Below are positions 1,985-62,387 of a stretch of DNA of 64,000 nucleotides, piece after piece. The notes beneath the pieces were generated by a model. It was not told the DNA's origin and made no database searches. It was given only the letters and a program-made list of their open reading frames with translations. The first letter of the stretch is position 1, and every line of letters begins with the position of its first letter. Source of the stretch: a virus; IMG/VR virus record IMGVR_UViG_3300028569_002586, positions 32,001 to 96,000 of that record. The stretch is one strand, 5' to 3'. The translations under genes and the position numbers were made by a program.

Positions 1985-4036
1985 TCATGATATGGCTCCT
2001 AAATACTGTCCTGTGCCTCCTGGAGTCACAGCATAGCCATTCAGATTAATACATTTACCAGCAGCACCACCTCCGTAGTTTGATGTCTTTGACCCAGCAC
2101 AACCAGCCCCCGCGCCCGCAGCTCCTAAGCTTCCACCAGCTCCCAATAGCTGGGCGCCTTTGGCACCGCCTGTTTTGTAAGTACCAGCACCACCATTACC
2201 GTTCGAACCGCCTGTACCTGCAGTACCAACTGTAATACCCGCGCCACCAGCTCCTGAACCACCTCCACCAGGGCATTGTTGATATACACCGCACCAAGGC
2301 CAATTACACCCACCTGATCCACCACCACCACCGCCAATAATGCCACTATTTTGTATAGTTAGATTATAATTTAAATTGATGGCAGGTCCACCAGCTCCAC
2401 CACTTGAGTTTGTTCCCCCAGCATTACCACCTTTGCCAGCTACCATACCATTAGCAGGTGAATTTGTTGCATCAGATACTGCAGGTACAATGAGCGTAAC
2501 AGTGGACCCCGCAGGCCATACACCTGTGTCCAATGCAGCAGTTGCAGAAGAAGAACTACCAATGTTGCCTGCCACAGTGAATTCCACATTTCTTGCACCT
2601 GCAGGCACTCCGTAGGTTGCCACATATGCATCATACAGATTCACATTGTTGGTGTTGGTACTGGCTGCACCTATTGTCACAGATTGTGTGGTGGGCGATG
2701 CAGTAGGTGTCACTGTGGGTGTGGGTGTGCGTGTCACTGTGGGGGTGGGTGATACTGAAGGTGTCACAGTGGGTGTCACAGTTTTTGTAGGTGTTACAGA
2801 AGGTGTAGGTGTCATGGTGGGTGTTTTTGTAACTGTAGGTGTGTTTGTTGGTGTGGGAGTTGGTGAAGCGTCCATTGTTTTGGTGGGGGTGACTGTGGGT
2901 GTGAGTGACACAGATGGTGTCACAGTGGGTGTTCTGGTGGGGGTGGGTGTCATGGTGGGTGTTCTGGTGGGAGTGAGTGTGGGCAATACTTTGAGACGCA
3001 AAGAATATGGCACTTTTCTGCTTGTGATCAGATAAGCAGATCCAGGTTGCATCACGGTCAATGTATTTTCAATTTGCAATGGATCATATTCATCAAATTC
3101 AACAAGTGAGGATTGATCTGTGCTGGTGCCAATCACCTTGATGGTGTTGCTCATATCTATGCCAGGTAGATAATTTTCATAGTCTATATTTTGAATGTAC
3201 TGAACATATTCAGTAATTTGCACATTGGCAAAAATGGGTGTGGTGGTTGGAGTAACTGTGGGTGTAGGTGTCCTGGTAGGTGAAACTGTTATGGAGGGTG
3301 TAACTGTGGGTGAGACTGTTTTAGTAGGTGTCACAGTTGGAGTGACTGTTTTAGTAGGTGTCACAGTTGGAGTCATTGTAGGGGTAGCAGTAGGGGTAAC
3401 TGAAGGTGTTATAGTAGGAGTTATAGTAGGTGTAACAGAAGATGTTGGTGTTACTGTAGGGGTTACTGTAGGTGTAGGTGTTTGAGTGGGTGTAGGTGTA
3501 GGGGAAGGAGTTGGGCAAAGATTAGACTGAGCTACAGTTGGCAGTCCACCAAAGGTACTACCAAAACCTGTAGCTACTGTACAGTAATAGACTGTGCCTG
3601 TAACAAGTATACCTAAAGAATTGAGAGTGAGGCTAGGTGCAGTACTACCAAGAAAATACCAACTCACCATGCTAGCACAATAATCAAATGTAGTGTATGG
3701 TATGATGGTTATATTTTTGCCAATGGTAATAGTTGTCATGTAGCTACAGTCACTAAATACCTGAGTGCCAAGGCTAGTAACACCATTGCCTATGGTTGCA
3801 CTGATTAGATCCTGGCAGTTCATGAACGCTGAATTTCCAATACTTGTCACATTGTCAGGAATAATGAGACTGGTTATCCGTGTACTAGCAAATGCAGAAT
3901 TACCAATACTGGTTACTTCATTACCAAATGTAACTGCGATTAATGGTGATGGCACAAATCTATTATAACTACTTTGTGTTATAATGGTATCAGTACTGGT
4001 AGAAGTGGTACCATTAAGATAATAAAATGTTGTCAT
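1985..4036 (-). CDS. BspA-type LRR (LRR_5) protein with two Pro/Thr linkers and a Gly-rich C-terminal domain (putative fibre/adhesin)
   Basis: IPDNVTSIGNSAF / IGNGVTSLG repeats, (PT)n tracts, GGGGGGSGG tail typical of phage Gly-rich fibre domains. Confidence 0.75.
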   Translation of the reverse strand: MTTFYYLNGTTSTSTDTIITQSSYNRFVPSPLIAVTFGNEVTSIGNSAFASTRITSLIIPDNVTSIGNSAFMNCQDLISATIGNGVTSLGTQVFSDCSYMTTITIGKNITIIPYTTFDYCASMVSWYFLGSTAPSLTLNSLGILVTGTVYYCTVATGFGSTFGGLPTVAQSNLCPTPSPTPTPTQTPTPTVTPTVTPTSSVTPTITPTITPSVTPTATPTMTPTVTPTKTVTPTVTPTKTVSPTVTPSITVSPTRTPTPTVTPTTTPIFANVQITEYVQYIQNIDYENYLPGIDMSNTIKVIGTSTDQSSLVEFDEYDPLQIENTLTVMQPGSAYLITSRKVPYSLRLKVLPTLTPTRTPTMTPTPTRTPTVTPSVSLTPTVTPTKTMDASPTPTPTNTPTVTKTPTMTPTPSVTPTKTVTPTVTPSVSPTPTVTRTPTPTVTPTASPTTQSVTIGAASTNTNNVNLYDAYVATYGVPAGARNVEFTVAGNIGSSSSATAALDTGVWPAGSTVTLIVPAVSDATNSPANGMVAGKGGNAGGTNSSGGAGGPAINLNYNLTIQNSGIIGGGGGGSGGCNWPWCGVYQQCPGGGGSGAGGAGITVGTAGTGGSNGNGGAGTYKTGGAKGAQLLGAGGSLGAAGAGAGCAGSKTSNYGGGAAGKCINLNGYAVTPGGTGQYLGAIS

Positions 4037-7000
4037 AGCACTAAATCTCCTGCTGTGAAGTAGTTGACATATGTATAATTTATGGGTGCCCGGTAATAGG
4101 TAAACACTTCATTTGCATAAATGGGGTCAAATAGCACATTGGCCACAAGCTGCGTTCCAATGTATAGATTCATAGTTTCTGGTATTGTGAGAGCAGATAG
4201 GCCATTGTAACTCAGAACATCTTGACTGCCATCTGTGGTCAGGGTGACACCACTTAGACCAATGGGCCCTGGGCCTATAAGAGATGTATCCAAGTTTAAT
4301 CCAGGATCAGATGTACCCACATCATTCAAATAGAAACCATTCACATTGAAGTTCTTAATCATCATTTTGGTTGCAGACACACTGGAGCTGAATGACAAGC
4401 ATGGTTTCACATACCTGGGCAATGCTTTTGTCAAGGCATAATTGGCATATGTGTGGAACTTTTCTTGATCAGGCTTCTTATGCTGCACAATGACTTGTCT
4501 GCCCAAATTGGCAATACGCACTCTGACTCTCTTGAATTCAGGTGCACCAGCAGTGATGTACTGATAGATGGTGAATGGTTCTGCAAATGCAGAAAGTGTG
4601 GGTGTTCTGTACAGTGTTTGATATGCTTTGAAGAATGCATCTCTGATGGTAATAGAGTTCGCTACACTGGAACTGTATCCTTGTGTGTTAAAACCTTGCA
4701 AGCCAAAATTACCATTGATGTCAAATCCAACACCCAAAATACCACCAGAAAGACCTGCATAATTGATAAAATCAGCTTCATTGAGTGCATTGGCACTGAT
4801 AAATGTTGCATTGGTGTAGTTTAATCCAGGTCCAGGTGCCCCTCCTGCAGTTTGTGCTGTGTATCCCAAGAAAGATACACAGAATCCTTCACCAGCTTGC
4901 TGTTGATCACCATGGCAAGCATAATCAAATGTGACTACCACATCTTTTGTTGTGTCAAACCCACTGCTTGCATATATGATGGTGCTCACAGATTCTGGGG
5001 TGAGCTCATAATACCCAGAAGGGTAAATGGTCAAGGTAGTTGTTGCAGACCCTGTGAAATTGTCGTTTGTAACTACAGCACTCACAGTGTAGGTGCCAGT
5101 GCTAATGGGCAACACTTGGGTATTGCCTTGCAAGTAGTAAGTGTTGAATGTCAATCCACCATATGCAGCTGCATAAGCAGTCACAGTTTGAACTGTGCCA
5201 TTGTAAATGTAATTGGGTGCAGGTGGATCAAAGAATATTGCATTGGAAATATCCAATTTTTGAAGTGCAACAGTTGTTTGTGCAGTCACTGGTACAAATA
5301 TGGATGTGGAAGCAGAACTCAATAGCAGTGTCACTGTGCCAGAACCACTCAGAGCAGAAAGTGTATTTGTGGCCACCATGACACCAGGGCCAGACAACAC
5401 TGAAGCATACACTGGAATGTCATTGGTAGAGAAATAGTAGGCAGAAACACGGGTCACTGCAGTCTGCAGGTATCCCAATGTTGCAGGCACATTAATTATG
5501 TTAATTTCTGGTGTGGCTCTGGGCACAGAACCAGGTGGTTCATCTGGTGTAATGAATGCTGCATTGCTTATCAGCGTGGTGTATGCACTGTCAGTATATG
5601 CTGTTCTGCCTTGTGGGTTGCCAGTATAATAAAAAGACAATCCAAAATTAGTAGGATCAGCACTCAATTGCAAGTACAGGCTGTCTATGGCTTTGGAGCT
5701 CAATTGGCAATTTTGTACTTGCAGATCATATACAGAGGATATGTTTTGATGCAGAGTGATGGCAGTTAGTGGGTTATTGTTGCAATACAAGAAGTTTATG
5801 TTTTGTATATTGGATAAATTGAGTGCAGATAATTGATTGTTAGAAAGGTGGAGGTACTCAAATGAAGCAGAGTTTAGATTGATCTGAGATATTTGATTGT
5901 CATAAAGATATAACGTTACATAATCTTGACTCTGCGCATTGAAATTTACACCTGTTAGCTGATTAGAATTTGCATAACATTGTGTTAAATTGGGGTGTGA
6001 ATTGATTGTTAATTGTTTTAATTGATTATCATGCAGGTACAATGTATCCAAATTGCTGCTGTTGCAGTCAACAAAAGAAGATAACTTATTTGCATATGCA
6101 TACACTGTTACAAGAGAATTAAAATTACTAATATCCAGGCTTGTTATGGAATTATTATTACAAATTAAGCTGGTTAAATTGGTGGCTTGTGGCAAGTTTA
6201 CTTCATTGAGTTTGTTTTGTGTTACAGACAGGCTAACTAAATTTTTTGTGTTTATTTGTGGAGGGAGAGCAGTCAGACTTGTAAGACCAATTGAAACCGC
6301 GCTTAAGAAATTGGTGTTGGTTAGATCAATGGCAGACAAATAGTAGTGCTGGTTGCTAAGGGTAAGGCCACTTAAAGAAGGGTTATTGACAAGTGATATG
6401 GCAGATAATGAATGCCTGTTGGCTGGTGAGCTAGAAGTTGTACCTGCAATTCTAACTGTGTGGAGAGAGGGGTTATTATTAAGATTGTATCTTGGCACGT
6501 TGCGATTGGTAGAAGAATTAAAATATTTTAAACTGGGAGAATTGAAGGTCACTGCGGAACTTAAGTTGGCATTAACGGTTAAATTTACAGTTCGAAGAGA
6601 ATTGTAAGTGAGGTTGGTGTTGAGTGCAGTTAATCCAGGATTGAATTGTATGTCAATGATTTGCATTGCACTCAGCCTTTGTAAATTCAAGTCATAAGGT
6701 GCAGATGCAGATCCCATTGTGTAGAAACGGAGCCAATTTAGAGCAGAAAGTCCAGAAAAATCAAAAGAAGAAAGCTTTGGGATATTGCTGAGGTACAGTT
6801 GTTGCAAGTTTTGCAAATATGTTATATTCAAGCTGGTCAAGGAAGGCAGATTGGTAAAACTAAGGAAGTATACTTTGTTAAAATTATTAGGTGAAGACAG
6901 ATTTATAGCTGCATCAGGATTTCCATCCAAGAACAGTGAGCCAGTTCCATTGTTGGGGTATATGACGTTGGTTAATTTTGAGCAGCCATTAAGATACAGA

Positions 7001-8175
7001 TCTCCTAGGCCAGTCAAAGGTGTTAAATCCACTGAGGACAGATTTGAGCAGCCAGCAAGGGTTAAATAACTGTTAGGGAGGCTGATGGGAGGTGCAGGAT
7101 CATTGTCCAGATGCACATTACTGAAGTAGATGCTTGTTAAAGATGGGCAAGATTGTATTTGAAGATTGTACAGTCTAGTTGAACTGGGTATTTCTGCAAA
7201 ATTTAAATCAACAAGATCAGGAGAATTGCTTACATTTAGAGCCCTTAAGCTGGATAAACTGGCAATGCCTTTGATTGCACTCAAAGCACTCAGAGAACCC
7301 AATCCAGATATATCCAAATAATATAACCCAGACAATCCATCTAATGTAATGTTGTTTGCAGAAAGGGTGTATTGTGGGTCATATGGTGCTATTTCACCGC
7401 TGTATCCCCTGCCGCCCAGATACAAGTACTTCAGGGTGGGAAAATTAGGAATATTAACTGCAGTTAAGTTGTTGTTTGCCAGACTTAATATTTCAATTGA
7501 GCTTAGAGGTCCAGTAAGGTTGAAGGAATTTAATTTTCTATTGGAATATGAGACGGAATTCCAGCGACTGATTGTAAAAGTTCTTAGGGCAGATAGAAAC
7601 TGTGTGTCACACAGAGAGAAGTCTTTGACCTGTAATTGATTTTGCCCTGCATATACATTTGGAATTTGACCACCTTTGAATTCTAATGCAGAAAGAGATC
7701 CATCTGACATATTCAAACCATTAGAAAATTGACAACCACTGATATTAAAGGTTACCAAATTACCCTGTCTGAGATCTATGTAATTGATATTCCTGTTAAA
7801 TACACCTGCAATCCTCACTGCAGTAAGATTGCCATAGTAATTTCCAGCCCACATGGTAAGATTTGTAAGATACTGATTGTATCTCAAATCCAAGTCTCCC
7901 CTCATGTATGTGCCTTCTGCAAATATTCTGGCAAGATTGGGGAACAAGTCAAAATCTATGTAAGTTGCATATTGAGGGCCTCGGGGTGCAAATTGACCAG
8001 AATAAATTTCAGTTATTAGTGCAAGTTTTGAGGAAGCATTGTTGAGATATAATGTGGAGCTACTATTTGCATCTACATAGTAGTCTGTGCCAGATATGAG
8101 ATGTACATTGCTATTAAAAAACCCTGATGATGTGGTTAGTAGTGTGTTGGATGTTGCTGCTGGTACAAATGCCAT
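4033..8175 (-). CDS. Large LRR protein with MBG/Ig-like domain and L-type lectin-like C-terminal domain (putative receptor-binding protein)
   Basis: Many LxxLxLxxNxL repeats; YNG...P...GTYTVSAV (MBG-like); GEGFCVSF...GGxLGVGFD (legume-lectin-like). Confidence 0.7.
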   Translation of the reverse strand: MAFVPAATSNTLLTTSSGFFNSNVHLISGTDYYVDANSSSTLYLNNASSKLALITEIYSGQFAPRGPQYATYIDFDLFPNLARIFAEGTYMRGDLDLRYNQYLTNLTMWAGNYYGNLTAVRIAGVFNRNINYIDLRQGNLVTFNISGCQFSNGLNMSDGSLSALEFKGGQIPNVYAGQNQLQVKDFSLCDTQFLSALRTFTISRWNSVSYSNRKLNSFNLTGPLSSIEILSLANNNLTAVNIPNFPTLKYLYLGGRGYSGEIAPYDPQYTLSANNITLDGLSGLYYLDISGLGSLSALSAIKGIASLSSLRALNVSNSPDLVDLNFAEIPSSTRLYNLQIQSCPSLTSIYFSNVHLDNDPAPPISLPNSYLTLAGCSNLSSVDLTPLTGLGDLYLNGCSKLTNVIYPNNGTGSLFLDGNPDAAINLSSPNNFNKVYFLSFTNLPSLTSLNITYLQNLQQLYLSNIPKLSSFDFSGLSALNWLRFYTMGSASAPYDLNLQRLSAMQIIDIQFNPGLTALNTNLTYNSLRTVNLTVNANLSSAVTFNSPSLKYFNSSTNRNVPRYNLNNNPSLHTVRIAGTTSSSPANRHSLSAISLVNNPSLSGLTLSNQHYYLSAIDLTNTNFLSAVSIGLTSLTALPPQINTKNLVSLSVTQNKLNEVNLPQATNLTSLICNNNSITSLDISNFNSLVTVYAYANKLSSFVDCNSSNLDTLYLHDNQLKQLTINSHPNLTQCYANSNQLTGVNFNAQSQDYVTLYLYDNQISQINLNSASFEYLHLSNNQLSALNLSNIQNINFLYCNNNPLTAITLHQNISSVYDLQVQNCQLSSKAIDSLYLQLSADPTNFGLSFYYTGNPQGRTAYTDSAYTTLISNAAFITPDEPPGSVPRATPEINIINVPATLGYLQTAVTRVSAYYFSTNDIPVYASVLSGPGVMVATNTLSALSGSGTVTLLLSSASTSIFVPVTAQTTVALQKLDISNAIFFDPPAPNYIYNGTVQTVTAYAAAYGGLTFNTYYLQGNTQVLPISTGTYTVSAVVTNDNFTGSATTTLTIYPSGYYELTPESVSTIIYASSGFDTTKDVVVTFDYACHGDQQQAGEGFCVSFLGYTAQTAGGAPGPGLNYTNATFISANALNEADFINYAGLSGGILGVGFDINGNFGLQGFNTQGYSSSVANSITIRDAFFKAYQTLYRTPTLSAFAEPFTIYQYITAGAPEFKRVRVRIANLGRQVIVQHKKPDQEKFHTYANYALTKALPRYVKPCLSFSSSVSATKMMIKNFNVNGFYLNDVGTSDPGLNLDTSLIGPGPIGLSGVTLTTDGSQDVLSYNGLSALTIPETMNLYIGTQLVANVLFDPIYANEVFTYYRAPINYTYVNYFTAGDLVL

Positions 8176-8178
8176 ATG

Positions 8179-11100
8179 TTATGCAAATATAAAATTGCCT
8201 CCAGTGTTGCCAATGCTGCTGCCCACAACAGAATATGTATTAAACTGTTGATAGCTGCTTGGGTTGCTAAAATTAGTGTGCAGAGTTTCAATGGTGGGTG
8301 TGTACATGGTGTTGATCACATTGGCTAATATACCGTTAAAGTATTTAAAGTCAGTATTGAAGATATAAAACATATTAGATGTGTCTTTTCCAAGATATGT
8401 AATGCTATATGTGCTTGTTTCTGAGTTGAATCTCAAAATGGGCTTTTCCACAGTCACAATATCAATGTTTAATCCAGTACCTGATAGTGTGAAGTCAATC
8501 ACATCACTGTATTGTATGTCAGCAACACGCATGTCAGGGTAAATTTGCACCAAATTGAAGGTGTTTAAATTCAATGCATAGATCACAGGATAAATGGCTT
8601 TGAAGTTGGATGCACTCAGTGTGGGGTGCAGTATTGTCTTGGCCAAGATGAGCTCATTGTTCTTCTCATCAAACCAAACAGTGGAGAATTTTTCTATATT
8701 TTCATTGAGGTTACCCCTGGTAACATATGTTTCATTGTTTGAAGATGTTCTGACACTATTATCTGTATAGTCAAATTCTATTTTATCAAACACCAGGTGG
8801 TTTTGTGTTTCAAGTTGCAGGGTGTCATAGTAGATATCAAAATTGATGATCTTTGTGTTGATTTCATCTAATATACTGGAAGGGTACTTCAGGAAGACAC
8901 CAGATAATGCACTGGACACTGGTTGAATGATGGAGCTGTTGGAGTTCCTAAAATAAAGATCACCATAATTAATATATTTTGTTTGGTAAATGGTTTGTTT
9001 TTCATTTAACCCTGGTAGAGTTGGCACATAAGCTGTGTCTCTGTTGGGCAGGACTATATTAAAGAACCTGCTGTACAACACAAAATTTGATGGATCATAA
9101 AACTCATCATTGCATGGGGTGAATTGATCTGTGAAAGAACTCACAACAAAGTAATATGCATAATAGTTGGTTAGTGCTGATGGTGGGGGTGTGAATGTGT
9201 AAACACCTGCAAAGGCAAAGTTGGCTCTATAATCAGGCCCACTGGGATTGACACCACCATCTGCAAGGATATCATAATAAACAGGAGATGTTATGGGGTC
9301 AAATGAGGGATCATCAGAAGATGCATCTACTAACAGATCACCATTGGGAGAGATGAAGCTGAAACCATCACGCACATTGCAATCAAAGAAGATATTAATT
9401 GTATCAGAGCAGAAGCGTTCAGGTTGCAGTCGGTAAGAAACAATGGAGAAAGGTTCTCCTGAAAGTGCAAACAAAGGTATGCCATTATCATACTGTGAAG
9501 CGGAAAGCGGTGATGCACCTGTGATGCTGCTAGCATGTGTGAAGTATCCTGATCCAGGTGGAATTTGTGTTATAGTTCTGGCAATTACACCAGAATAATT
9601 TTTAGCTGGATCAACTTCTGTATAATCAAAGTTAAATCCACTTGTAAAGTCATAAAAAGTGTGACCGTCCAGTATCAAGCAATTTTTATCTTGATTTTCT
9701 ATGCTAATTGTTGACAGTATTGCTGATGTGTTTTTGTATGGTTCAGTTAATTTGTAGAGTCCGTAGTCATTGCCATACACATCTGATTTGTATTGTACCA
9801 GTGTCTTGTTGATGCTCAACAAGGTCTCCAAACGCGTTTCAATGGGAAAGAAAATTGAAGGCACAAGAGGGTACACATCTGAATTTGCCCATCTATTTTT
9901 CAGCAGATCCTCAAAAAAATCTTGTGGATCCACATGTCTGGATATGCCTTGATTGGAGAAATCTATGGACTGTTCTCTGGCTTGATAAGCTCTGAAGGTA
10001 TGCAGCAATGGATCACTCTTCACGTCACCAAATTTATAACAATTAGAATAATCAATCTGTGTGAAGCTGTTGTCTTCTATGAAAGTTAAAGGTGAAAATT
10101 GATCTTGTTGTGTATTACCAGAAATATTTCCAAATTTATTTGGGTCAGGAAAAATATAGACTGTATTTGTCTGAAGAGAGGTTACATTGACGTTGTAAGT
10201 GAAATTAAAATTGTTAAAGTTTAAAAACCCCACCCGATCTGGCTTGAAGAACAGACCTTGTTGCTTTGCAGTTTTTAAATTTGCTTCATTAGGAACAAAA
10301 GCTACAGTGGGTGATAATTTGTTCAAATAATTTGCAAAAGGGCTTTGAGCTTGAAAAAGCATTCCTGAGGCAACATTTGTGAGACTGTTACCAGTTGATA
10401 CATAATAAAAATCTGTGCCTGTGTATTTCTTGTTAAGTTCAGAAAGAAGATTTAATTTTAAATTGTTTTCTGTGTTGTTGTTGATGAGATTGATGAAATC
10501 TCTGTCTTTTAGTAGGTCCAGCCTGGAGGGATCAATTGCAGGTAAAACTGAAAAATTATTTGTTCCAATTTCAGTTAAAAAGAATGGGTAGCTTGTTATG
10601 GCATTTACTATGGAACGGTCAAAATTAAGATACAGTTCAGCATCAATGTTGAATATGTTTAAAACAAAATCAGTTTCTCTGAGACCAGATGCATTGTATG
10701 CTGAAGCAGGCAGTGTGCCCAGATCAAAATAGTCAGAATAGTTGTCATACAATTCTTCAAGTTCAACTAAAGTATCATTGCGTATGGATGAAATGGAAAG
10801 GTTCAGTGTTCTGATCAGGGCAGTTAAATCCTGTGCTTCCAAGGTTTTAGAGATTTCATTATAAATGAGTCTTTCCAATCCAGAATTGCTTCCCTTGAGA
10901 TTGTATTCCACAACAGCTGTTTTAGCTGTATCTCTAAGAGTGGAGAAGTATATGCAAATATCTTTAATTTTCTTTGCAAAGAAGGGAACTGCAATTGCAA
11001 GATCTCTATTGTTTGTATAGTCAATATTTTTTAAAAATCTTCTCTCATCCACAGATGTAAAGTTTAAAACAATTTCATTAATAAAATCTAGGTAATATGT

Positions 11101-11334
11101 TTTAACCACATCTTGTGCAGCAGTGGGTGTATAGTTCTTTGCTTCAAACCAATTGTTCAGATAGCTGTTGTAACGTGCAAACAGCTCTTCGGATGTCAAA
11201 GCTAATGAAGAATTGAATTTGAGCCATTCAATGAAGCTAATTGGATTGGTTCTGTCTATGGGTGTTTCTGCCAGGACATCTTTAGTAATAGAATTATCTA
11301 GTGTTTCATCAACAAATCTATTGATATCAAGCAT
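8179..11334 (-). CDS. Large virion structural protein (baseplate/fibre-associated, unassigned)
   Basis: 1051 aa, aromatic/Asn-rich, in baseplate cluster, own late promoter. Confidence 0.5.
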   Translation of the reverse strand: MLDINRFVDETLDNSITKDVLAETPIDRTNPISFIEWLKFNSSLALTSEELFARYNSYLNNWFEAKNYTPTAAQDVVKTYYLDFINEIVLNFTSVDERRFLKNIDYTNNRDLAIAVPFFAKKIKDICIYFSTLRDTAKTAVVEYNLKGSNSGLERLIYNEISKTLEAQDLTALIRTLNLSISSIRNDTLVELEELYDNYSDYFDLGTLPASAYNASGLRETDFVLNIFNIDAELYLNFDRSIVNAITSYPFFLTEIGTNNFSVLPAIDPSRLDLLKDRDFINLINNNTENNLKLNLLSELNKKYTGTDFYYVSTGNSLTNVASGMLFQAQSPFANYLNKLSPTVAFVPNEANLKTAKQQGLFFKPDRVGFLNFNNFNFTYNVNVTSLQTNTVYIFPDPNKFGNISGNTQQDQFSPLTFIEDNSFTQIDYSNCYKFGDVKSDPLLHTFRAYQAREQSIDFSNQGISRHVDPQDFFEDLLKNRWANSDVYPLVPSIFFPIETRLETLLSINKTLVQYKSDVYGNDYGLYKLTEPYKNTSAILSTISIENQDKNCLILDGHTFYDFTSGFNFDYTEVDPAKNYSGVIARTITQIPPGSGYFTHASSITGASPLSASQYDNGIPLFALSGEPFSIVSYRLQPERFCSDTINIFFDCNVRDGFSFISPNGDLLVDASSDDPSFDPITSPVYYDILADGGVNPSGPDYRANFAFAGVYTFTPPPSALTNYYAYYFVVSSFTDQFTPCNDEFYDPSNFVLYSRFFNIVLPNRDTAYVPTLPGLNEKQTIYQTKYINYGDLYFRNSNSSIIQPVSSALSGVFLKYPSSILDEINTKIINFDIYYDTLQLETQNHLVFDKIEFDYTDNSVRTSSNNETYVTRGNLNENIEKFSTVWFDEKNNELILAKTILHPTLSASNFKAIYPVIYALNLNTFNLVQIYPDMRVADIQYSDVIDFTLSGTGLNIDIVTVEKPILRFNSETSTYSITYLGKDTSNMFYIFNTDFKYFNGILANVINTMYTPTIETLHTNFSNPSSYQQFNTYSVVGSSIGNTGGNFIFA

Positions 11335-11339
11335 TAAAT

Positions 11340-11345
11340 TATTTA
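11340..11345 (-). promoter_or_regulatory. Late promoter box TAAATA, 5 nt before ATG 11334
   Basis: T4 gp55-type core; overlaps the upstream gene stop. Confidence 0.7.
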
Positions 11346-14300
11346 ATTGTTGAATACAATATCAACAGCACTAGTGAAGAGCTTTAATCCCTTGGTAATC
11401 TCATAGCTGAGTAGATTTTGCATGATGCCATCTGTTTTGGACCAGTCTCTATAGGAGCTCAAACTGGGGTTTAATAGTGTTAATGGGTCATACCAATTGA
11501 TTATATTGTTGTAATAGCTTCCCTGTATGCCATCAATGTATTCATTGAAACTGTAGTAATTTGCAATATCAGTACCTGAGACACTGCGGGGAGCAACCAA
11601 GCCCCATCCCCAATTGTAAGAAAACGTACTGAGAGGGACAACATCACCAATAACGTAGCCTGGTATGATGTTTGTGTTGGCCAGGCTGTATAAGTCAGAG
11701 AATGTCTCCAACACTACAACCGGCACGCCAACTGTAATTGCACCAGAAACAGGGGAAATTTTATTGCCGAGATTGCTGCCGTACAAGGGGTTATTTAAAT
11801 ATCCTTTTTTATCAAAATTGTTATTGAAGGTGTTCTTCTCACCCCATAGCAGTTTGTGCTTGATGCTCAATATATCGACCAACCGTCTCACTTGTGGTGG
11901 AAAAGGGTAATTGTACTGTTCAAACTGCAAGCTCACTTCATCACAGAATGATAATAACCTGTCCAAGTTGCATTTGTCAATATCAGCATTATTGGACACA
12001 AAATTAGCAATTTTTTCATATACTACTTTTCCAAGTTCATATGGCTGAGCGCTTATGTCACCTACTATGGTGCCAAGAAAGTTATCAAAAAATAGTTTTT
12101 TATCATCTAGTGATTCTTGATACCTGAGATTTTTATAGAATTGACTTGCATCAAAATCTTCATTAATTTTTGTTATGTTGTATTTGCCAGTGTCGGGGTA
12201 TATGTTGAAAAGCTCAGATTCACCGGTCACTGTTCTCACCACTGTGTAGGGCACCATGTACTTGTTGATCCATCTGGACCCATTCCAATCCCCATAAGAT
12301 TGAAAGAGTTGCTCAGTAAATGCTGATACAGGGTTTGCGGGGCTATTAGCGGGAAATGTGAGTGTAATGTAATCAGTGCTGCATAGAGATGTGAGATTAG
12401 TTGTGTAACTATCAATATAATACATTTTGTTATCGAAATTATTAATTGTCCAGATGTAATTGCTGGTGTCAGAAGCTATGCCGCCAATACTGCAAATATA
12501 ATTTGTTTGATTTAGTCCAGAGCCAGCAACATAATATCTTAATTGTGCAGTATCACCATCTATTCTAACAATAGTTTCTCTGTCATCTGCCACATAAGCA
12601 TTTTGACCACCATCAACAGTTATGTTGCCTGCCAGCCTGAAGCCTGACAAAGGATAGCCTGCAAGCACATTGCCAATGCTGTCAAATTTATAGACAAAAT
12701 CATTCTTGCCTGTTAATGAAGGTGAAGGTGAATTCAAATTGAGAGCTGTTAACCAGACATATTTGTTTCTATCCACTACAATTTCAACTGGTGAGATCAA
12801 GCTGGTGAGTGGTTTGGCGATTAGTAGGTTGCCGTCTGTGTCATATTTGATTAAGAAATTGGACACAGGGTGGGTGTAGGCAACCCAAATATTATTTTCA
12901 CTGTCTGTGTCTAAGGATGCAGGTAATAGAGCATTTTCACCTGCAAAACCACTCAATTCAGGAATATTATAATCAGAACTCAATGCATATACAGCATTCA
13001 TTAAGTTGGGGTAAGCAACAGCTTTCAAGTATCCTGTGTACCGGTCTATTTTAATGCATGAAACAGAATCAAACAGCGATATCCATATGTCACTGTTTCC
13101 ATCTAAGGCAACACTGTTTGGAGCTGCACTGGATAATTCCTGGGACTGCAGATCAACTGTGTTGAATGCATCCAATGGGTAAGCAGATAGGCTAAAAGCA
13201 GAAAGTATTTCACCGAAAATAGTTATTTTATAGATTTTATCTGCATTACCATCTGCAACCCATGATTGATAATCTTCTCCAGCTCCTGCACCTGAAGGTG
13301 CAACAGCAATGGCATAACTCTCTGTGCTGCCTGGTGTGGGATAATCATTAATGTACGCAGAAAGAATAACATTCATTGCACCTGCGCAAGAATCATAGAA
13401 TGTAGTTTTAAATATTCTTTTGATATAGAAATGTTGTGGTTCTGCCACCCAACCTACCAAGCTATCTTTAGGAAAATTGACTGGGTCAACAATTGCCATG
13501 CTTGCTGTGAGTTTCACATTTTCAGTGCTCTCATGTGGTATGATGTATCCTTTGTAGAAGCTGCCTACTGACTGAGGTATATCTACACTAAAATCACTAT
13601 AGAATGACAGGTTGGTAAGACATGCTGTTGCAGTGCCAGTATCTTGCACAAGTGAAATTTCTAAATTATAAGCAGATAAACCAGATAGAGAAGGGTCCAC
13701 TGTGGCAGATGAAAGAGGGGGATAGGTTCTGGTTGTGTATCCTGTTTCATCTTTCATTCTGATGACAAAAGGTATTTCAGTATTCTGCCAGCTTATGTAA
13801 GGCATGTTAAAGTTTGTAGCTGTGAGAGGCCCTTCACCGTCAATGCCGTTTGTTGTGATGGCTAATTTATTTGCAGGGTTGTGTCTTACTTTGATGATAG
13901 GCAACACAGCAGGTTGCAGATTCTGATACCCTGCAGGTGGGTAGCCAATGTAATTCTGCACATCAGTAAGCACAGCATATGCATCCTTGAATTTTGCATT
14001 ATCAAAAGTCGCCATGATCAGGATGGGTGGCTCCCTTGAGGTGTAATTTTTTGTTTTATCATCCACATAGTAAAAATCTGCATAACCTGTGGTCCCTGCA
14101 AAGTATGCTCCTGCATCTTCTTCCCTGCATGCTTCAATGCTGTTGTTGACTATTCTTGCATATACGTCAGTATCTTTGGTATTGACATGATCAACAATAA
14201 CAAATTCATCATTATCACCTATGGTTTGCACTTCATAAAAGCGGGACAAGCTTCGAAGATGGCTCCATTTATCATTGATAAAAGAATTGTAATCAATGTA

Positions 14301-43249: not shown

Positions 43250-43255
43250 TATGGA

Positions 43256-44986: not shown

Positions 44987-45264
44987 AAAGCATTAAAATT
45001 CTTAGAATTTATAAATTTCATTATATATTTACTCTTATAAAGAGTTGGATCATACTGTAAGAAATATCTTAGTGCAAAATAGTCATTCTTAAAATCACAA
45101 TAATTCTTGAGAAGGTCACGGTACTTCTTATTCTTGAGAACAAGTAGAAAAACGTTAGCGAGGTTTAGCTTTTTTGTGCCAAGCAATGTGCAGAAAGTGC
45201 AAAATGAGAGAAACAGATGTGCGACCTCGAAGTGTGCTATCTTTTCAGAAGGATCAATATTCAT
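44983..45264 (-). CDS. Hypothetical protein
   Basis: ORF coupled to both neighbours. Confidence 0.55.
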   Translation of the reverse strand: MNIDPSEKIAHFEVAHLFLSFCTFCTLLGTKKLNLANVFLLVLKNKKYRDLLKNYCDFKNDYFALRYFLQYDPTLYKSKYIMKFINSKNFNAL

Positions 45265-46959: not shown

Positions 46960-46965
46960 ATTATA
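46960..46965 (-). promoter_or_regulatory. -10 element TATAAT, 6 nt before gp41 ATG
   Basis: Perfect -10; no clear -35. Confidence 0.55.
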
Positions 46966-47635: not shown

Positions 47636-48318
47636 GCAGTGTAGAATGGTGAATTGGGTTTAAAGGTTCCAACAGAGGTTAGACCTTCAACAGTTTGAAG
47701 GTACAGTATCCCCTCTTGCAGAGGATTAAATCCTGCTTGCGGCAAAGAAGAAAAGTCATTAGTTATAAAATGTGCATATAGTGTGCTGCCTGATCTTGCA
47801 AGATACACGTGCCCTGTTTTGGAAGAATATATCCAGAGTCCAAATGTACCTTTGAGCTCAGTAAGAGCTTTGCAAATGCAGTCCACTTCTTTTTTTGAAA
47901 CAGCACAATAAGAAGTGATAAGTGCTGGTATGGCAGATGAATCAACTTGGTTGATGGACTTATATTTTTTAAGCTTTCTCTTGAGTTCTGGGAAGTTGGA
48001 CAAAACACCATTGTGAGCAACATACCAGTTTAGATTGCTAAAAGGGTGAGTTGTCTTGTGAGTGTATTCTCTTATTGCTGATGTGGGTGCTTGTGTATGG
48101 CCCAAGTAATTTTGGAAGGAACTGAGTGGTTTGGTTTTTTTCCCTTGAATCTCTAATTCAAGATTACCTTTGAACCCAAACGTACCTTTTGTTTTAATAA
48201 GAGCATGTAACTTGTTATCAATAAACAGCCCTCCATATGAAAAACTGCCCCTTTTTTTATTTTTATTGTAAAGAGCAACGTATCGTTTGTAATCTGTTGA
48301 ACCAAATATACCACACAT
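47632..48318 (-). CDS. Class II (Ntn) glutamine amidotransferase, stand-alone
   Basis: MCGIFG N-terminal nucleophile, GHTQAPT, HPF, VAHNGVLSN, VDS. Confidence 0.88.
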   Translation of the reverse strand: MCGIFGSTDYKRYVALYNKNKKRGSFSYGGLFIDNKLHALIKTKGTFGFKGNLELEIQGKKTKPLSSFQNYLGHTQAPTSAIREYTHKTTHPFSNLNWYVAHNGVLSNFPELKRKLKKYKSINQVDSSAIPALITSYCAVSKKEVDCICKALTELKGTFGLWIYSSKTGHVYLARSGSTLYAHFITNDFSSLPQAGFNPLQEGILYLQTVEGLTSVGTFKPNSPFYTA

Positions 48319-55337: not shown

Positions 55338-57152
55338 CTATTCACGGTGATATTCAACATAATCAACTTTTCTTGTGATGCCATTATTTTTCTCTAAGAA
55401 GATGATTTCACCAGTAGCTGCCTTGATGCTTTCTTTTCTATGACTTATAACCATTGCACACTCTTTATACTTTTCCACACGTTCCTTAAGAATATTGATA
55501 ACTAATTCTACTCCCTTTTCATCTAAACTAGAATCAAAAAGTTCATCATAAATACTGAAGTTAAAGGAAACATCACCTTGCAATCTTCTGATGTCCATGA
55601 AGGTGAACAAACAGGCCAGATCTATATTCTTTCTCTCGGCACCGCTAAAGTTAAAGTAGGAACATTCTTTGCCTTTATCATCCAGAATGTTTTCTTCAAA
55701 ATATTCATTAAAGACACATATGCAATTGGCATCCATCTTCTTGAGATAATATGCGAGTTTAGTATTGAAGATCTGCAATATTTTTTTGACAATATATGAC
55801 TTCACACCTTCTTCAGACATAACAAACTTGACAGCTTCAAGTTTTCTGAGATCTTTTTTAATACTTTCAATTTCTTCAGAAAGATTTTTTATCTTATCTT
55901 CTTGCTCTACTATAAGTCCATCAAACTGATTGTTACTCACCTCAAGTTCTTTCAGATCAACCTCAAGCTCTTTCTGCCATTTGTTGAGTTGCGTAATCCT
56001 TTCTTTTGTATTCTCAAGACCTTTAACTTGTATTCTATATTCTTGAATTTTATTTTTTAGTACATCTATGCCTTTAACAATCTTTAATTCAAGATCAGCA
56101 TACTCTTCTTCTTTGTCTTGTGACTCTTTAATTTGTTTATTAAACTCTGTTACTTCAGTTTTAATTTTTTGCTTTTCTTCTTTTATATGAGATTTATCCT
56201 TATCACCAAGAGCGCGTAAGCAGGTAGGGCAATTATCTTTATCTGTACCGATAAGCTTGTAGGTTTTTTCTTTTATATCAATCTGTGTTTTGAGAGAAGA
56301 GACTGTATCACGTACAACTTTAATATCATTATCAATTTTACCAGATTTAGCTTCAAGTGTCTTGATATCTTTTTCTATTTTTGAAACATCAAGCTCTATA
56401 GAGCTGTCAAGCTTTTCATTAAGTACAACAAGTTCTTTGGTATTATTATTTCTTCTTGTCTCATATTTTTTTTGCTTTGCAACTCTCTCAAGCTTAAAAT
56501 TTTCAGCTTGTTTCTGGAGATTGGTTAGCATTTTTGAAGCTTCATCGTACTTTGCAGACAGCACATCAAATGACTTCTTCTGTTCACTGATATCATTCTT
56601 TACATCAGTATTCATATTACTAAACACCGAGAGGTTGAATATGTCTTCAATAAACTTCCTCTTTTCATGCTTTTTCTTAGCCATGAAAGGCACAGTATTA
56701 TTAAGTGTCATTATTACACAATTCTGAAATATCTCAGGAGTACACTGAAAGAGTGTCATGATATACTCATTTGTATTGGAGATACTGTCACGGGTCTTAT
56801 CATCACCATTAACAAAGATATAACACTTTGAGGGGTCTATGGTGCGTATAATTTGAATTTTATCAACTTTATTATATCCTGACACTTCAGCTTCTAAAAC
56901 AACTTCGCATGTCTTTTTATTGATATTGTTGATGATAAAATCTTTTTTGAGATCTCTAAGAGTTTCGCCGAATACAGCAAAGTAAATTGCATCAGCTATT
57001 GTGGATTTTCCAACACCGTTTCTGCGGTCATCTTTATCCTTATTAATACCTGTTATGACATGAAGGCCTGGTTTGAAGTCAACAACCACAGGTGCACTAC
57101 CTACAGAAAGAAAGTTCTTAATTGATATATTTTTAAAGCTAATTTTTTTCAT
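55338..57152 (-). CDS. gp46: Recombination endonuclease ATPase subunit (gp46, SbcC/Rad50-like)
   Basis: KNFLSVG, NGVGKST, coiled coil with CPTC hook, FSGAE, DELFDSSLD, ISH. Confidence 0.95.
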   Translation of the reverse strand: MKKISFKNISIKNFLSVGSAPVVVDFKPGLHVITGINKDKDDRRNGVGKSTIADAIYFAVFGETLRDLKKDFIINNINKKTCEVVLEAEVSGYNKVDKIQIIRTIDPSKCYIFVNGDDKTRDSISNTNEYIMTLFQCTPEIFQNCVIMTLNNTVPFMAKKKHEKRKFIEDIFNLSVFSNMNTDVKNDISEQKKSFDVLSAKYDEASKMLTNLQKQAENFKLERVAKQKKYETRRNNNTKELVVLNEKLDSSIELDVSKIEKDIKTLEAKSGKIDNDIKVVRDTVSSLKTQIDIKEKTYKLIGTDKDNCPTCLRALGDKDKSHIKEEKQKIKTEVTEFNKQIKESQDKEEEYADLELKIVKGIDVLKNKIQEYRIQVKGLENTKERITQLNKWQKELEVDLKELEVSNNQFDGLIVEQEDKIKNLSEEIESIKKDLRKLEAVKFVMSEEGVKSYIVKKILQIFNTKLAYYLKKMDANCICVFNEYFEENILDDKGKECSYFNFSGAERKNIDLACLFTFMDIRRLQGDVSFNFSIYDELFDSSLDEKGVELVINILKERVEKYKECAMVISHRKESIKAATGEIIFLEKNNGITRKVDYVEYHRE

Positions 57153-58258
57153 CTGTATTTCTTATAGAGATCTTGACTGTATTTGATTATAGAAGGCTTA
57201 TCTTCTATATCTAGCAAGTTAACAAACTCTTCAATTGCTTTTGCAACATCAACACCTGAAACATCTAAACTGGCTTCATCAGTTATTTGCAATGTATCGC
57301 TAACAAGAGAATAATCGACAGACAAAGAAAATGGCTTGTATACAGAAAACTTTTTAAGAAGAGTGTCAACATGATCAGGAGCAACCTTCATATCAATTAT
57401 TAGCTTAACAATGTTGTTCTCAATTTCAGCCTGTATCTTTTTAATGTCTTTTTGATCCTTAACAACAGCACCAAATTTATCGCTTGTGATAAGATCGGTA
57501 AGAAGCATTTTCTTGTGTTTGGGTGACTTGCAGTTTTCAAAAAATTCTAAAACAAGATTATTAAAATCTAGGAGGTAATACCCTTTGGTTGATCCTGTAT
57601 CACCAAAATCCATTTCAAATGGATTGCCTACATAGATAATCTTCTTATCTCCGTATTCGCGTTCATCTCTGAGATGAAAATGACCTGATAGAATTAAGGA
57701 TGCTTTGTTGAGTAACTCTTCTGTTTTAAGACCATGATCACACAGCTTATAGCTATTCATCTTGAAACTCTCTATTTCAAAATGACCAAACACAATGTCA
57801 GAATTCTTGATGTCATTAATATCAAACCCCCATGGAGCAAAGCAACATTTCTTGCCAAATATTACAGTATTAAGTGTTTCAGAAATAATGGTTATGTTCT
57901 TCCATCCATCAAACAAGGAGAGAGAATTAATATCTGATCTATCTTTATAATATGAATCGTGGTTACCTACAAGAATAATAATATTAAAGTCCTTCCAGAG
58001 TTTGAACATCTCATTAACAACATGCAGTGTATTGACTGCAATTTCATCACGATAATGAAATACATCACCAAGAATAAGAATGTCTTTGATGTCTTGTTTT
58101 TTAAGTGATTCTCTCAGCCATTTAGCCCAACTCAGAGCTGTTTCATGCCAAAAAATACTATTTTGATGTATGCCCAGGTGCAAATCAGCAATACAACAAA
58201 CTTTATTGTTTTTTAGAGTAAATTCTTTAGTTTCCTGCGGTGTTATAGTTGTCGTCAT
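57149..58258 (-). CDS. gp47: Recombination endonuclease nuclease subunit (gp47, SbcD/Mre11-like)
   Basis: DLHLG, LGDVF, GNHD, GHFE, SGHFH, YVGNP. Confidence 0.95.
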   Translation of the reverse strand: MTTTITPQETKEFTLKNNKVCCIADLHLGIHQNSIFWHETALSWAKWLRESLKKQDIKDILILGDVFHYRDEIAVNTLHVVNEMFKLWKDFNIIILVGNHDSYYKDRSDINSLSLFDGWKNITIISETLNTVIFGKKCCFAPWGFDINDIKNSDIVFGHFEIESFKMNSYKLCDHGLKTEELLNKASLILSGHFHLRDEREYGDKKIIYVGNPFEMDFGDTGSTKGYYLLDFNNLVLEFFENCKSPKHKKMLLTDLITSDKFGAVVKDQKDIKKIQAEIENNIVKLIIDMKVAPDHVDTLLKKFSVYKPFSLSVDYSLVSDTLQITDEASLDVSGVDVAKAIEEFVNLLDIEDKPSIIKYSQDLYKKYR

Positions 58259-58808
58259 CTCGATTATTTGACGTGTCTACATAGATATGATAATTGGCAT
58301 CAGGGTTATGATCAGTCATCAAATCTGTATAAACACGATCTTTGTAGTTTGTTACAGTCTCATGATGTTTTTTTTCTTTTTTAATTCTATTGATAAATGC
58401 ATGAAAAGCAATTGTGGTGAAATAAGAGAAGGGACTAAAACCAGAATCCAGTCTAAACTTTTTATTCTTTAGAGCAGAAACCATTTTTACAATAGCATCA
58501 CCTATCATGTCATCTTTATATGAGTAATTTATAAAATTAGGAGCATATGATAGTCCGTTAGCAATTTTGTTTATTGATTCACCAAGCTTAATAGAAATAA
58601 AATCTGTGTTGTAATAGTGTCTTATTTCCTCCTCAAATTCCCTACCATTAACATAGTGTACTTTTTCTTTGCCTCTGGGTTTTTTTTCTGTTTTTAAGCT
58701 GGGAGGGAGTGAAGCTTCAATCTCTGCAGATGTAAGAGATTTTCGTTGGTCTTCAGGAGCATTACTCTCTGATTTCTTTGATTTGATGTGTAATGTTCTC
58801 TTTTTCAT
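58227..58808 (-). CDS. gp55: Late transcription sigma factor (gp55)
   Basis: HYVN..EF, IA.GLSY.PNFINYSY.DDMI.D, PFSYFT.IAF.AFI.RIKKEKK. Confidence 0.92.
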   Translation of the reverse strand: MKKRTLHIKSKKSESNAPEDQRKSLTSAEIEASLPPSLKTEKKPRGKEKVHYVNGREFEEEIRHYYNTDFISIKLGESINKIANGLSYAPNFINYSYKDDMIGDAIVKMVSALKNKKFRLDSGFSPFSYFTTIAFHAFINRIKKEKKHHETVTNYKDRVYTDLMTDHNPDANYHIYVDTSNNRDDDNYNTAGN

Positions 58809-60216
58809 AAAGTGCTCTTCTTTTTAGGAAGTGCTGATAACCATATTGTAGATTATCAGCAATGTCAATGATTATAAGCTTATCTTTGTCCTTATGCAAC
58901 CGTAAACCTCTTCCGATGGACTGTAATATCTTTATTTTTGCCTTTCCTCCGCCTGCAAAGATAATGTAGTGTAAGTTTTTAATATTAATACCTGTGGAGA
59001 ATATCTTTGAAATGGCTACAACAATGACATCGGAATGCTCCTCCATGAGCTTTCTAACCTCTTCTCTTTCATTAATTTCGACTTCTCCTCTGATGTAGAA
59101 TATTTTCTTGGCAGGGCAAGTATTCTTAAGCAGATTGAAAATGTTTTCACCATGCTCAATGTAGTCAACTAATATAAGTGTGTTCTGTGATGCACCACAG
59201 GCAGCTTTAGAAATAAGGTTGTTTCTAAAATTATTTTTTATTAAAAAGTCAACTTCTGCTCTATATCTATCTGCTGCATTAATTAACTCAGAAGGATATT
59301 GTGGCAGTGTTTTGTAGTTTATCATTAATACAGCAACAGACACATTGCTGACATAACTCTCTAGTCTGAGCTCATAGCTTGTTTTTTCATAGATGATGGG
59401 CCCAATTTTACCAATGATATTCCATTGATCTAGCTGGCCTTCGGGCATAGTGCCTGTCAATCCAAAGCGCAAAGGTGTTTTAATTATTTTAAATAATTTA
59501 TTAATTTCATTTCCTTTGCGAACCTTATGTACCTCATCAACAAACAATACATCTATTTCCGATAACCAAGATGTATCGCTGTTTTTGCTTTGAAGAATCC
59601 CTATATTTGCTACGACAACATTAGCGCTACGATCCAACTCATGGCTGCCAGTCCATTTGCTGATTGTGAATGGCACATTATAAGAAAGAAAATCTGCTGA
59701 TGTTTGTTGTACCAGTCCAAGATCAGGGACAATGAACAAACATTTGAATCTGGGATTAGATAAAAATATGTTGGAAAGAATTGTAGCTGATGTGAGTGTC
59801 TTGCCCCCTGCAGTAGCCAGTACAATAGTACCGCGACCAGTATTTAATGACTTTACAACAATTTCTTCTTGGTAGTCTCTAAGTGGTATGCTTAGCTTGA
59901 ACGGCGTTGTGGTGAAAGCACCTCTGTCCTGAAGATATTTCTTAGCAGGCAGTAATTCTTCAAGTAATTCTGCATCTATTTTTATTTCATCAGGGTACTG
60001 GTTTGTTATAAACAAGCGCTTGATCTCCAGGGCAAGACAGGGATCAAATTTGCCCATGGGTGTTATGGCGTAGGTTCTTTGCGGTATGAATCGACCATAC
60101 CCTCTGATAAATTTAGCTGCCTCGTTCTTTACTGAGAAGTGCTCTCTAATCTCATCAAATCTATCGCTTACAAGAATACCTTGGCGCTTTTTTGCATCAA
60201 GCTTAAGCTCGGTCAT
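58762..60216 (-). CDS. uvsW: SF2 DNA helicase UvsW
   Basis: LRDYQ, TAGGKT, DEVH, GLTGT, FSTGINI.NLH, QSIGRGLR. Confidence 0.93.
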   Translation of the reverse strand: MTELKLDAKKRQGILVSDRFDEIREHFSVKNEAAKFIRGYGRFIPQRTYAITPMGKFDPCLALEIKRLFITNQYPDEIKIDAELLEELLPAKKYLQDRGAFTTTPFKLSIPLRDYQEEIVVKSLNTGRGTIVLATAGGKTLTSATILSNIFLSNPRFKCLFIVPDLGLVQQTSADFLSYNVPFTISKWTGSHELDRSANVVVANIGILQSKNSDTSWLSEIDVLFVDEVHKVRKGNEINKLFKIIKTPLRFGLTGTMPEGQLDQWNIIGKIGPIIYEKTSYELRLESYVSNVSVAVLMINYKTLPQYPSELINAADRYRAEVDFLIKNNFRNNLISKAACGASQNTLILVDYIEHGENIFNLLKNTCPAKKIFYIRGEVEINEREEVRKLMEEHSDVIVVAISKIFSTGINIKNLHYIIFAGGGKAKIKILQSIGRGLRLHKDKDKLIIIDIADNLQYGYQHFLKRRALYEKENITHQIKEIRE

Positions 60217-60605
60217 TAGGTTGTCTCGAGTTTAATAATTTCAAGAATATTTTTGACATCATAAGAGGCGCTGCTAAATGTTTTTTCTGATTTCTCTAAA
60301 AGCTCAATAACTAGTTCAATCTCTTTTATCTTTGCTTCATATTCTTTTAATTCTGTAGCACTTTCTGCTGTCTTCTCTAGAACAGGTATAGATAATTTTA
60401 CAGAAGATGTTTCATTTAATTTTTTAACAATATCGGACTTAAGTTTTTCTTTTTGTTTTTTTAATGTAACTAGTTCAAGCTTATGCCTTATGCATCTGCC
60501 AGTCCACTTGTGCTTAATGCCTGGTAGCTTTAATGCGTAATCCTTGAGGTAAATCTCATCTATCTTTAGATCAGCTTCCAATTCTTTTATATAATTTTCT
60601 AGCAC
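60216..60605 (-). CDS. uvsY: Recombination mediator UvsY; start reassigned to GTG 60605
   Basis: DLKIDE..L......P..K.KW, coiled coil, Y..KNI.E; adjacent to uvsW; promoter 6 nt upstream. Confidence 0.8.
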   Translation of the reverse strand: MLENYIKELEADLKIDEIYLKDYALKLPGIKHKWTGRCIRHKLELVTLKKQKEKLKSDIVKKLNETSSVKLSIPVLEKTAESATELKEYEAKIKEIELVIELLEKSEKTFSSASYDVKNILEIIKLETT

Positions 60606-61922: not shown

Positions 61923-62387
61923 ATGGGATTTAAGGAAAAGCTTAACGAATATGTACTATCTTTAGAACAAGATGCAGCTGCAGTAGGTCAGCCTGCACAA
62001 CAAGATGCTTCTCAACCTATTACACAGCCTGTAGCAATGCCTGCCCCTGATAAAGGCAAAGCAGCAGAGCCTCAGGGCATTGCGCCTGAGGGGTATGTGG
62101 AGCTTGTAAGATTGTTAGCTAAAGCTCTTGTAATGAATGTACCACCAGAATCTATTGATGACCTCTTCTCAACACCTGTAACTAAGGAAAACGCAGAAGA
62201 GGTAAGAGAAGCGCTAGAGAAGCTAATGGGTACATCCAATAACTATAAGAACAATCCAGAGAAAGTTGACAATGTAAGTTTCATGAAATTTTATGATTCA
62301 ATTAATGAAAATAATTTTTATAATAAGCTCAAACATGTCATTTCTGTAATGAAGAAGTATAGTAATGATGTGGATGTAAAGCTATGA
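61923..62387 (+). CDS. Hypothetical late protein with capsid-targeting-like N-terminus (MGFKEKLNEYVLSLEQD)
   Basis: Late promoter; LE|QD shared with the 38564 gene. Confidence 0.55.
   Translation: MGFKEKLNEYVLSLEQDAAAVGQPAQQDASQPITQPVAMPAPDKGKAAEPQGIAPEGYVELVRLLAKALVMNVPPESIDDLFSTPVTKENAEEVREALEKLMGTSNNYKNNPEKVDNVSFMKFYDSINENNFYNKLKHVISVMKKYSNDVDVKL

Follow-up and report, generated by a model that had tools for sequence, protein, structure and literature searches.

Reinitiation pairs and leaderless genes in described systems

Reinitiation of translation at overlapping gene pairs without a Shine-Dalgarno (SD) motif is experimentally established in Haloferax and in E. coli (PMC6728339; reviewed in PMC12548453), while the question whether a 30S subunit is retained or a 70S ribosome scans is still open in model systems (PMC12548453). 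Here we analyze junctions of this kind in a 64,000-nt stretch of viral DNA (IMG/VR record IMGVR_UViG_3300028569_002586), hereafter the window, which corresponds to bases 32001–96000 of a single 157,011-bp contig (~37% G+C) from an uncultured freshwater (lake) T4-like myophage. Comparison with the reinitiation pairs described so far (Huber et al. 2019, PMC6728339; PMC12548453), for which the SD is not essential in Haloferax, reveals the same junction types between co-directional genes. As in haloarchaea, the first cistrons of the phage are predicted to be mostly leaderless and are followed by overlapping downstream genes. Haloarchaea and most bacteria, however, keep an SD at overlapping pairs, whereas the signal in this phage is near background and resembles the 'fourth pattern' so far described only in Bacteroidetes (PMC6728339). 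The present system differs also in being a phage, for which coupling is predicted from sequence. Stop-start coupling is probably the main way in which the genes without a promoter are translated here.

The operons of T4 (e.g. 47-46.2-46.1-46 and 44-62; NC_000866) exhibit tight junctions at a similar frequency and gp55-type late transcription, and the 4-nt overlaps that join 47-46.2-46.1-46 have a counterpart in the 4-nt overlap between the gp47 and gp46 genes of this phage. However, 62–77% of T4 coupled starts carry an SD, compared with 20% here, and T4 mRNAs have leaders, whereas the late box in this phage is fixed 11–13 nt before the start codon. For the Thermus phage phiYS40, Sevostyanova et al. 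reportedly found in 2007 that middle and late transcripts are leaderless. That phage represents a different lineage from the T4-like one studied here, with its gp55-type late sigma factor, and searches of public phages with the large terminase subunit (TerL) and the DNA polymerase detected no sequence relation to it. In Deinococcus-Thermus (PMC12340547) the -10 element is positioned a few bp upstream of the start codon, an SD is absent and GTG is accepted as a start codon, all as observed here; the part of the study available to us does not address the fate of downstream cistrons. The stop-start finding as such is not new, since gene overlaps and translational coupling are textbook features. 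What is notable is the combination of a near-background SD level at coupled junctions with promoters fixed on start codons, in a T4-like phage.

Stop-start junctions and Shine-Dalgarno pairing

Gene calling for the complete contig relied on a hexamer model derived from its long open reading frames (ORFs), after which the start codons were refined. The resulting 187 genes (coding density 96%) form 147 same-strand junctions, including 25 at a distance of -4 nt, 10 at -1, 10 at +1 and 34 in the range from 0 to +10; about one third of all genes start on, or a few bases from, the stop codon of the preceding gene. Relative to an even spread of the 70 junctions within ±10 nt over 16 possible distances, the -4 class is far in excess (binomial P-value 3e-13) and the -1 class less so (P-value 0.01). 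The 25 four-nucleotide overlaps comprise 24 ATGA and a single GTGA. TGA is a minority stop codon, used by 46 of the 187 genes, and in 25 of these 46 it is found inside a 4-nt NTGA overlap. The initial annotation had listed 15 overlaps and four short gaps in the window, and all of them are present according to ORF coordinates and sequence: 11 ATGA sites, three TAATG sites and gaps of 3, 1, 3 and 6 nt. The single correction concerns 38136–38139, which reads not ATGA but TTGA, with the ATG directly behind it (TGATG).

The -4 and -1 distances are the sole short overlaps that are geometrically possible. They are the commonest junction type in T4 as well as in nearly all prokaryotes, and such pairs have been found in nearly all of 720 genomes (Huber et al., PMC6728339). 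They account for 24% of the junctions in this phage and for 16% in T4 (13 of 82 in its first 50 kb), and distances between -4 and +10 account for 47% here and 41% in the same part of T4. The stop-start pattern is real and non-random, but of ordinary frequency.

The premise that the starts of this phage are not enriched in SD is borne out in bulk: anti-SD pairing of -4.4 kcal/mol or stronger was found for 12.4% of all starts compared with 10–12% of internal ATGs, while the same measure in T4 gives 65% of starts compared with 8% of internal ATGs. A gene was regarded as coupled if it had no strict promoter box and started within -4 to +10 nt of the upstream same-strand stop codon (n = 60). SD-like pairing is exhibited by 12 of these 60 starts (20%), a mild excess over the background of ~11% (P-value 0.03), but far less than the 62% in T4 (Fisher P-value 9e-5). 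The remaining 48 pair more weakly than -4.4 kcal/mol, i.e. these downstream sites are weak on their own. The coupled genes also start with ATG more often than the promoter-adjacent genes (95% vs 78%, Fisher P-value 0.006).

The absence of SD is nevertheless not absolute. Good SDs precede four long-gap genes (136–1938 in the window and three near the right end of the contig, outside the window) and three or four coupled genes. The genes with good, AGGAG-type SDs are clustered among small genes at 154–157 kb of the contig and in the tail-fibre module at 136–4036 of the window (46% G+C). Two fibre genes in this module share the upstream stretch ATAAATTATA...CAGGAGA, which looks like a late box followed by a ~40-nt SD-bearing leader, the classical T4 arrangement. 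Because a few genes have good SDs and the early promoters are of the TTGAnn/TAnnnT type, which resembles ordinary sigma70 promoters and not those of Bacteroidota, the host ribosome can probably use SD.

A classical SD-assisted coupling, as in T4 and E. coli, with the SD hidden in the 3' end of the upstream gene, would be suggested by the SD-like sites of 1985–4036 (AGGAG-like, -7.4 kcal/mol), of the tail-tube gene 32476–33105 (-10.0 kcal/mol) and of two genes in the right-end cluster, but with 80% of the coupled starts at background pairing energy and T4 strongly different by the same measure, we regard it as highly improbable. The site of the tail-tube gene, GGAGG at 10–14 nt upstream of its start, was considered as a conserved SD and rejected, as it belongs to the Q-G-W codons conserved in TerL and is variably spaced from the ATG in relatives.

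Promoter boxes on start codons and the weighing of reinitiation

A promoter box with fixed spacing, from which transcription is predicted to begin on the start codon, precedes 74 of the 187 genes (55 late-box and 19 sigma70-like genes; this tally includes TAAGTA variants and refined starts), and the share of promoter-on-start genes is ~40–47%. TAAATA is found 11–13 nt before the called start in 40 cases, compared with 0.3 expected, 24 of them at exactly 11 nt, and the base preceding it is always A or T, which gives the consensus (A/T)TAAATA. As the T4 late box occupies positions -13 to -6 relative to the transcription start (PMC1524935), this spacing predicts that transcription begins with the start codon's first base. 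Both elements of T4-type late transcription looked for, a TATAAATA-like box at -13 to -6 and a gp55-type late sigma factor, are found. In the sigma70-like class (TTGAnn-N16-18-TAnnnT) the spacing from the -10 hexamer to the start codon peaks sharply at 6 nt, and the placement of the -10 element, fixed at 5–7 nt before the start codon and without SD, is that of leaderless genes. GTG starts without a nearby alternative start keep the same box spacing; GTG is used by 13 of the 55 late-box genes and by the DNA polymerase gene with its sigma70-like promoter, compared with 3 of the 60 stop-adjacent genes. Among the 74 promoter-class starts, anti-SD pairing reaches -4.4 kcal/mol in one and -6 kcal/mol in none. 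The box geometry suggests that the boxed genes give leaderless transcripts, and a leaderless first cistron would lack the space for an SD. The TAAATA box of a cyanomyophage is located 25–40 nt before the ATG, hence the zero-leader geometry characterizes this lineage rather than T4-like phages as a whole. A literature search for leaderless late transcripts in T4-like phages returned nothing relevant.

TerL relatives are encoded in 188 IMG/VR stretches, and 80 of these TerL-matching contigs (55–98% identity) were used for comparison; counts in these relatives are not phylogenetically independent. Late boxes are spaced from the start by 11 nt in 290 cases, by 12 nt in 107 and by 13 nt in 46. Boxes are retained in 45 of 45 orthologues of 34816–35673, in 32 of 34 of 28640–29548, in 41 of 49 of the sheath gene and in 31 of 33 of 38564–38983. 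Coupled junctions remain tight across orthologues, to within a few nt, although the precise distance shifts: among 47 orthologues of the junction at 36043 it is -4 in 22, -1 in 7, -8 in 5 and +1 in 3; at 41696 it is -1, 0, +1 or +4; and between the terminase and tube genes it is -13, -8, -4, -1 or +3 to +9. Some genes switch state. The genes 22916–23281, 23328–24713, 26949–27716 and 27739–28605 are boxed here and stop-adjacent in some relatives, while the tube gene, overlapped here, has a late box or its one-mismatch variant in some relatives. These junctions fit a rule of two states, start on a promoter or start next to a stop codon, that would be maintained by selection.

The coupled genes form 43 chains, of which 32 comprise one gene and 8 comprise two, with a maximum of five. 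The chain is headed by a strict promoter-on-start gene in 26 of the 43, and several more are headed by relaxed-box or SD genes. Within chains the genes are co-directional, with the stop and start codons overlapping or separated by a few nt, as in known reinitiation pairs, and the overlaps leave no room for a terminator between the paired genes. Partners of one machine are found among the coupled pairs, namely gp47/gp46 and baseplate wedge genes.

The following scheme may be proposed. The genes would be expressed in short units, the first gene of which has a box (gp55-type late (A/T)TAAATA or sigma70-like TTGAnn-N17-TAnnnT) that would put the transcription start on the start codon or 1–2 nt before it. 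One or two more genes, rarely up to five, would then follow via ATGA, TAATG or TAA-N1-8-ATG. Because the downstream starts are mostly without SD, the terminating ribosome most likely stays on the mRNA and restarts at the nearest AUG, which would give roughly proportional output of neighbouring genes. Scanning by the 70S ribosome and retention of the 30S subunit are indistinguishable by sequence alone. SD-independent termination-reinitiation at the tight junctions is the reading we prefer, with a confidence slightly above even. In favour of the coupling proposed by the initial annotation are the junctions themselves, their poverty in SD, the box-headed chains and the state switches, while the dependence of the downstream genes on upstream translation is the part that we infer.

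Several observations weigh against this interpretation. In T4 and in a cyanophage, tight junctions occur just as often and call for no special explanation. Strict coupling would also fit poorly with the linkage of the tail-tube gene, needed in high copy, to the low-copy terminase gene. About 15 same-strand genes start 10–47 nt inside the upstream gene (e.g. gp55 at -47, gp47 at -32 and 37287–37730 at -17), and about 10 genes are located behind spacers with neither box nor SD. Taken together, these two groups imply that some SD-less internal initiation or long back-scanning must exist, and they are left outside the logic that the initial annotation regarded as complete. The gp55-type late sigma gene itself (58227–58808, minus strand; phrog_234, E-value 9e-26; tblastn matches to cyanophage late sigma factors) is an exception to the two-state rule: only one start is possible for it, this start overlaps the helicase gene by 47 nt, and neither a promoter box nor a clear SD is seen. 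Finally, the regions around coupled starts contain more A and fold less stably (-6.2 kcal/mol) than those of internal ATGs (-8.6 kcal/mol), which would fit independent initiation as well.

The most serious competing explanation is that the overlaps are a by-product of genome compaction and that the downstream genes are initiated independently, without SD, at unstructured A-rich starts, as in Bacteroidota or cyanobacteria. It would agree with the universal occurrence of -4 and -1 as the only possible short overlaps (PMC6728339), with the ~25 genes which must be initiated internally, with the bS21 homologue encoded by the phage and with the Bacteroidetes that lack an SD at leading and overlapping genes alike (PMC6728339). 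However, free internal initiation would leave little need for promoters on ~40–47% of the start codons or for so strong a two-state architecture, and, given the TTGAnn/TAnnnT early promoters and the few good SDs of the phage, the host probably has SD-capable ribosomes. Reduced structure is found also at the coupled starts of T4, and for that reason it was rejected as a discriminator of coupling. On balance we regard compaction with independent initiation as possible, but rather unlikely.

The genome-wide division into promoter-adjacent and coupled genes covers most of the contig: ~83% of the same-strand genes are promoter-on-start, stop-adjacent or SD-led. The other ~17% fit neither class. Relaxed boxes occur in 17 of 52 unclassified genes, compared with a background of 9% (P-value 1e-6), and one might ask whether most coupled genes, too, own an unrecognized promoter inside the upstream gene and are leaderless, the proximity of stop and start being incidental. 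A perfect TATAAT is indeed found 5–6 nt before the ATG of 42863–43249 and 45628–46953, a full -35/-10 pair precedes 37714–38136, and relaxed boxes are seen at 10 of the 60 coupled starts where 5.3 are expected (P-value 0.04). This is a bare enrichment, however, an excess over background of only ~5 genes, and 50 of the 60 coupled starts do not have even a relaxed box, which makes hidden promoters an improbable general explanation.

Returning to reinitiation, its most far-reaching version would be that a widespread, uncultured aquatic T4-like lineage, to which the 188 TerL-matching IMG/VR contigs point, has rebuilt its gene expression almost free of SD, with gp55- and sigma70-like promoters on start codons, reinitiation for all distal cistrons and bS21 possibly tuning the ribosome. 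We consider this version plausible, with somewhat less than an even chance. If true, the phage would offer a natural and compact system for SD-independent reinitiation after a leaderless first cistron, i.e. a T4-like phage with a haloarchaeon-like translation logic. There would be a practical consequence for annotating this large set of environmental phages: the distance to a box or the position of the upstream stop could be used to assign start codons, whereas gene finders that depend on SD would misplace them.

Junctions along the window and accompanying observations

The window encodes structural proteins (a gp6-like baseplate wedge, a gp38-type adhesin domain, tail sheath, tail tube and large terminase), replication proteins (gp43-type DNA polymerase, DnaB-like helicase, UvsX, gp46/gp47 nuclease and clamp loader), a gp55-type late sigma factor and a bS21 homologue. 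Scans of the window for Rfam families, rRNA and tRNA gave no match, and neither did a megablast search of 20 kb against public phage genomes. Tblastn searches with TerL, DNA polymerase and gp55 found distant T4-like phages only, and with identities of 30–40% these matches indicate that the phage has no cultured relative.

The junctions lie on the minus strand except for two. In the tail region, the 1380-aa fibre-like gene 4033–8175 is followed by the 683-aa gp38/LRR gene 1985–4036 via ATGA at 4033–4036, and is itself separated from 8179–11334 by a 3-nt gap (8176–8178; TAA CAT ATG) without SD. The gp6-like baseplate gene 14789–16651 passes into the 1148-aa PKD gene 11343–14789 by a 1-nt overlap, TAATG at 14789, and is preceded, across a 1-nt gap at 16652 (TAA T ATG), by the baseplate wedge gene 16653–17132, which has a GTG start and a TAAATA box 11 nt upstream. 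ATGA at 18731–18734 connects the dUTPase gene 18731–19183, with a sigma70-like promoter 6 nt from its ATG, to the clamp-loader gene 17784–18734. Two further ATGA overlaps, at 22916–22919 and 21363–21366, join 22916–23281 to 21363–22919 and the latter to 19711–21366; this three-gene chain is headed by 22916–23281, with a late box 12 nt before its ATG. At 33102–33105 ATGA connects the large terminase gene 33102–34799 to the tail-tube gene 32476–33105.

On the plus strand, ATGA joins 35738–36046 (late box at 11 nt) to the head-closure gene 36043–36786 at 36043–36046, and 61923–62387 (late box at 11 nt) to 62384–63541 at 62384–62387. Back on the minus strand, the corrected TTGA/TGATG at 38136–38139 links 38136–38531 to 37714–38136, the ATG of which has the embedded promoter TTGATA-N17-TAAAAT at a spacing of 6 nt. 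The pair 40527–41375 (sigma70-like promoter, 7 nt spacing) and 40237–40530 shares ATGA at 40527–40530. A 3-nt gap (42080–42082) separates 42083–42814, which has a sigma70-like promoter, from 41696–42079, and a 6-nt gap (43250–43255) separates 43256–44110 from 42863–43249; the latter gene may own a -10 box, because the upstream TAA sits in a TATAAT 5 nt before its ATG.

In the block of replication genes, the gene of the bS21 homologue (44771–44986, minus strand; phrog_21469, E-value 1e-4) is itself coupled, via ATGA at 44983–44986, to 44983–45264, which in turn follows 45264–45614 via TAATG at 45264. ATGA at 47632–47635 joins 47632–48318 (sigma70-like promoter, 6 nt spacing) to 46961–47635, and the DnaB-like helicase gene 45628–46953 is located 7 nt behind the latter, with TATAAT 6 nt before its ATG. 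The SbcD-like gp47 gene 57149–58258 and the SbcC-like gp46 gene 55338–57152, which encode two subunits of one nuclease, share ATGA at 57149–57152, and TAATG at 60216 connects 60216–60605 to the helicase gene 58762–60216.

Several searches aimed at the host gave no lead to it. A search of a protein atlas with bS21 as the query returned nearest clusters that are all viral, and a scan of genome contigs found no bacterial relative of it. No tmRNA was detected on the contig by ARAGORN. The phage encodes tRNA-Gln(CTG) and a tRNA(CAT) outside the window, at 29877–29949 and 154398–154472 of the contig; the tRNA(CAT) is not an initiator but an elongator of Met or Ile2 type, because its positions 1:72 are paired and its anticodon stem has no G-C run.

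Contigs from lake-water metatranscriptomes (Logan) are 90–97% identical to the window and cover 5–11% of its words; they place relatives in RNA libraries, whereas 5' ends and coupling are beyond their resolution. By far the deepest coverage in four lake metatranscriptome runs falls on 34816–35673 (plus strand, 285 aa, without PHROG match). In two runs, the RNA contigs of close relatives start at 34837–34840, 21–24 nt inside this gene, and none extends upstream despite a word depth of 60–130x, a weak hint on the transcription start. Relatives have a 9-nt insertion near 35326–35334. The 3' side of the gene (35674–35737) exhibits a G+C-rich hairpin flanked by A and T runs, probably a bidirectional terminator. 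Upstream, between the terminase gene 33102–34799 and 34816–35673, lies a divergent late-promoter region (34800–34815) with the palindromic TAAATATTTA, which serves both genes: the plus-strand box is at 34805, 11 nt before the ATG at 34816. On the terminase side of TAAATATTTA a distance of 15 nt separates the box from the ATG, and ATG TAA ATG forms a one-codon ORF abutting the terminase start.

A distinct peak of junctions is found at a gap of 8 nt, with six cases on the contig and 38 in relatives, in which the upstream TAA opens the next late box. At 11335–11345 (minus strand), for example, the upstream TAA doubles as the opening TAA of the TAAATA box that belongs to 8179–11334, while the case at 24714–24724 has TAAGTA in place of TAAATA. 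In this class the stop codon, the promoter and the start codon are accommodated within 14 nt.

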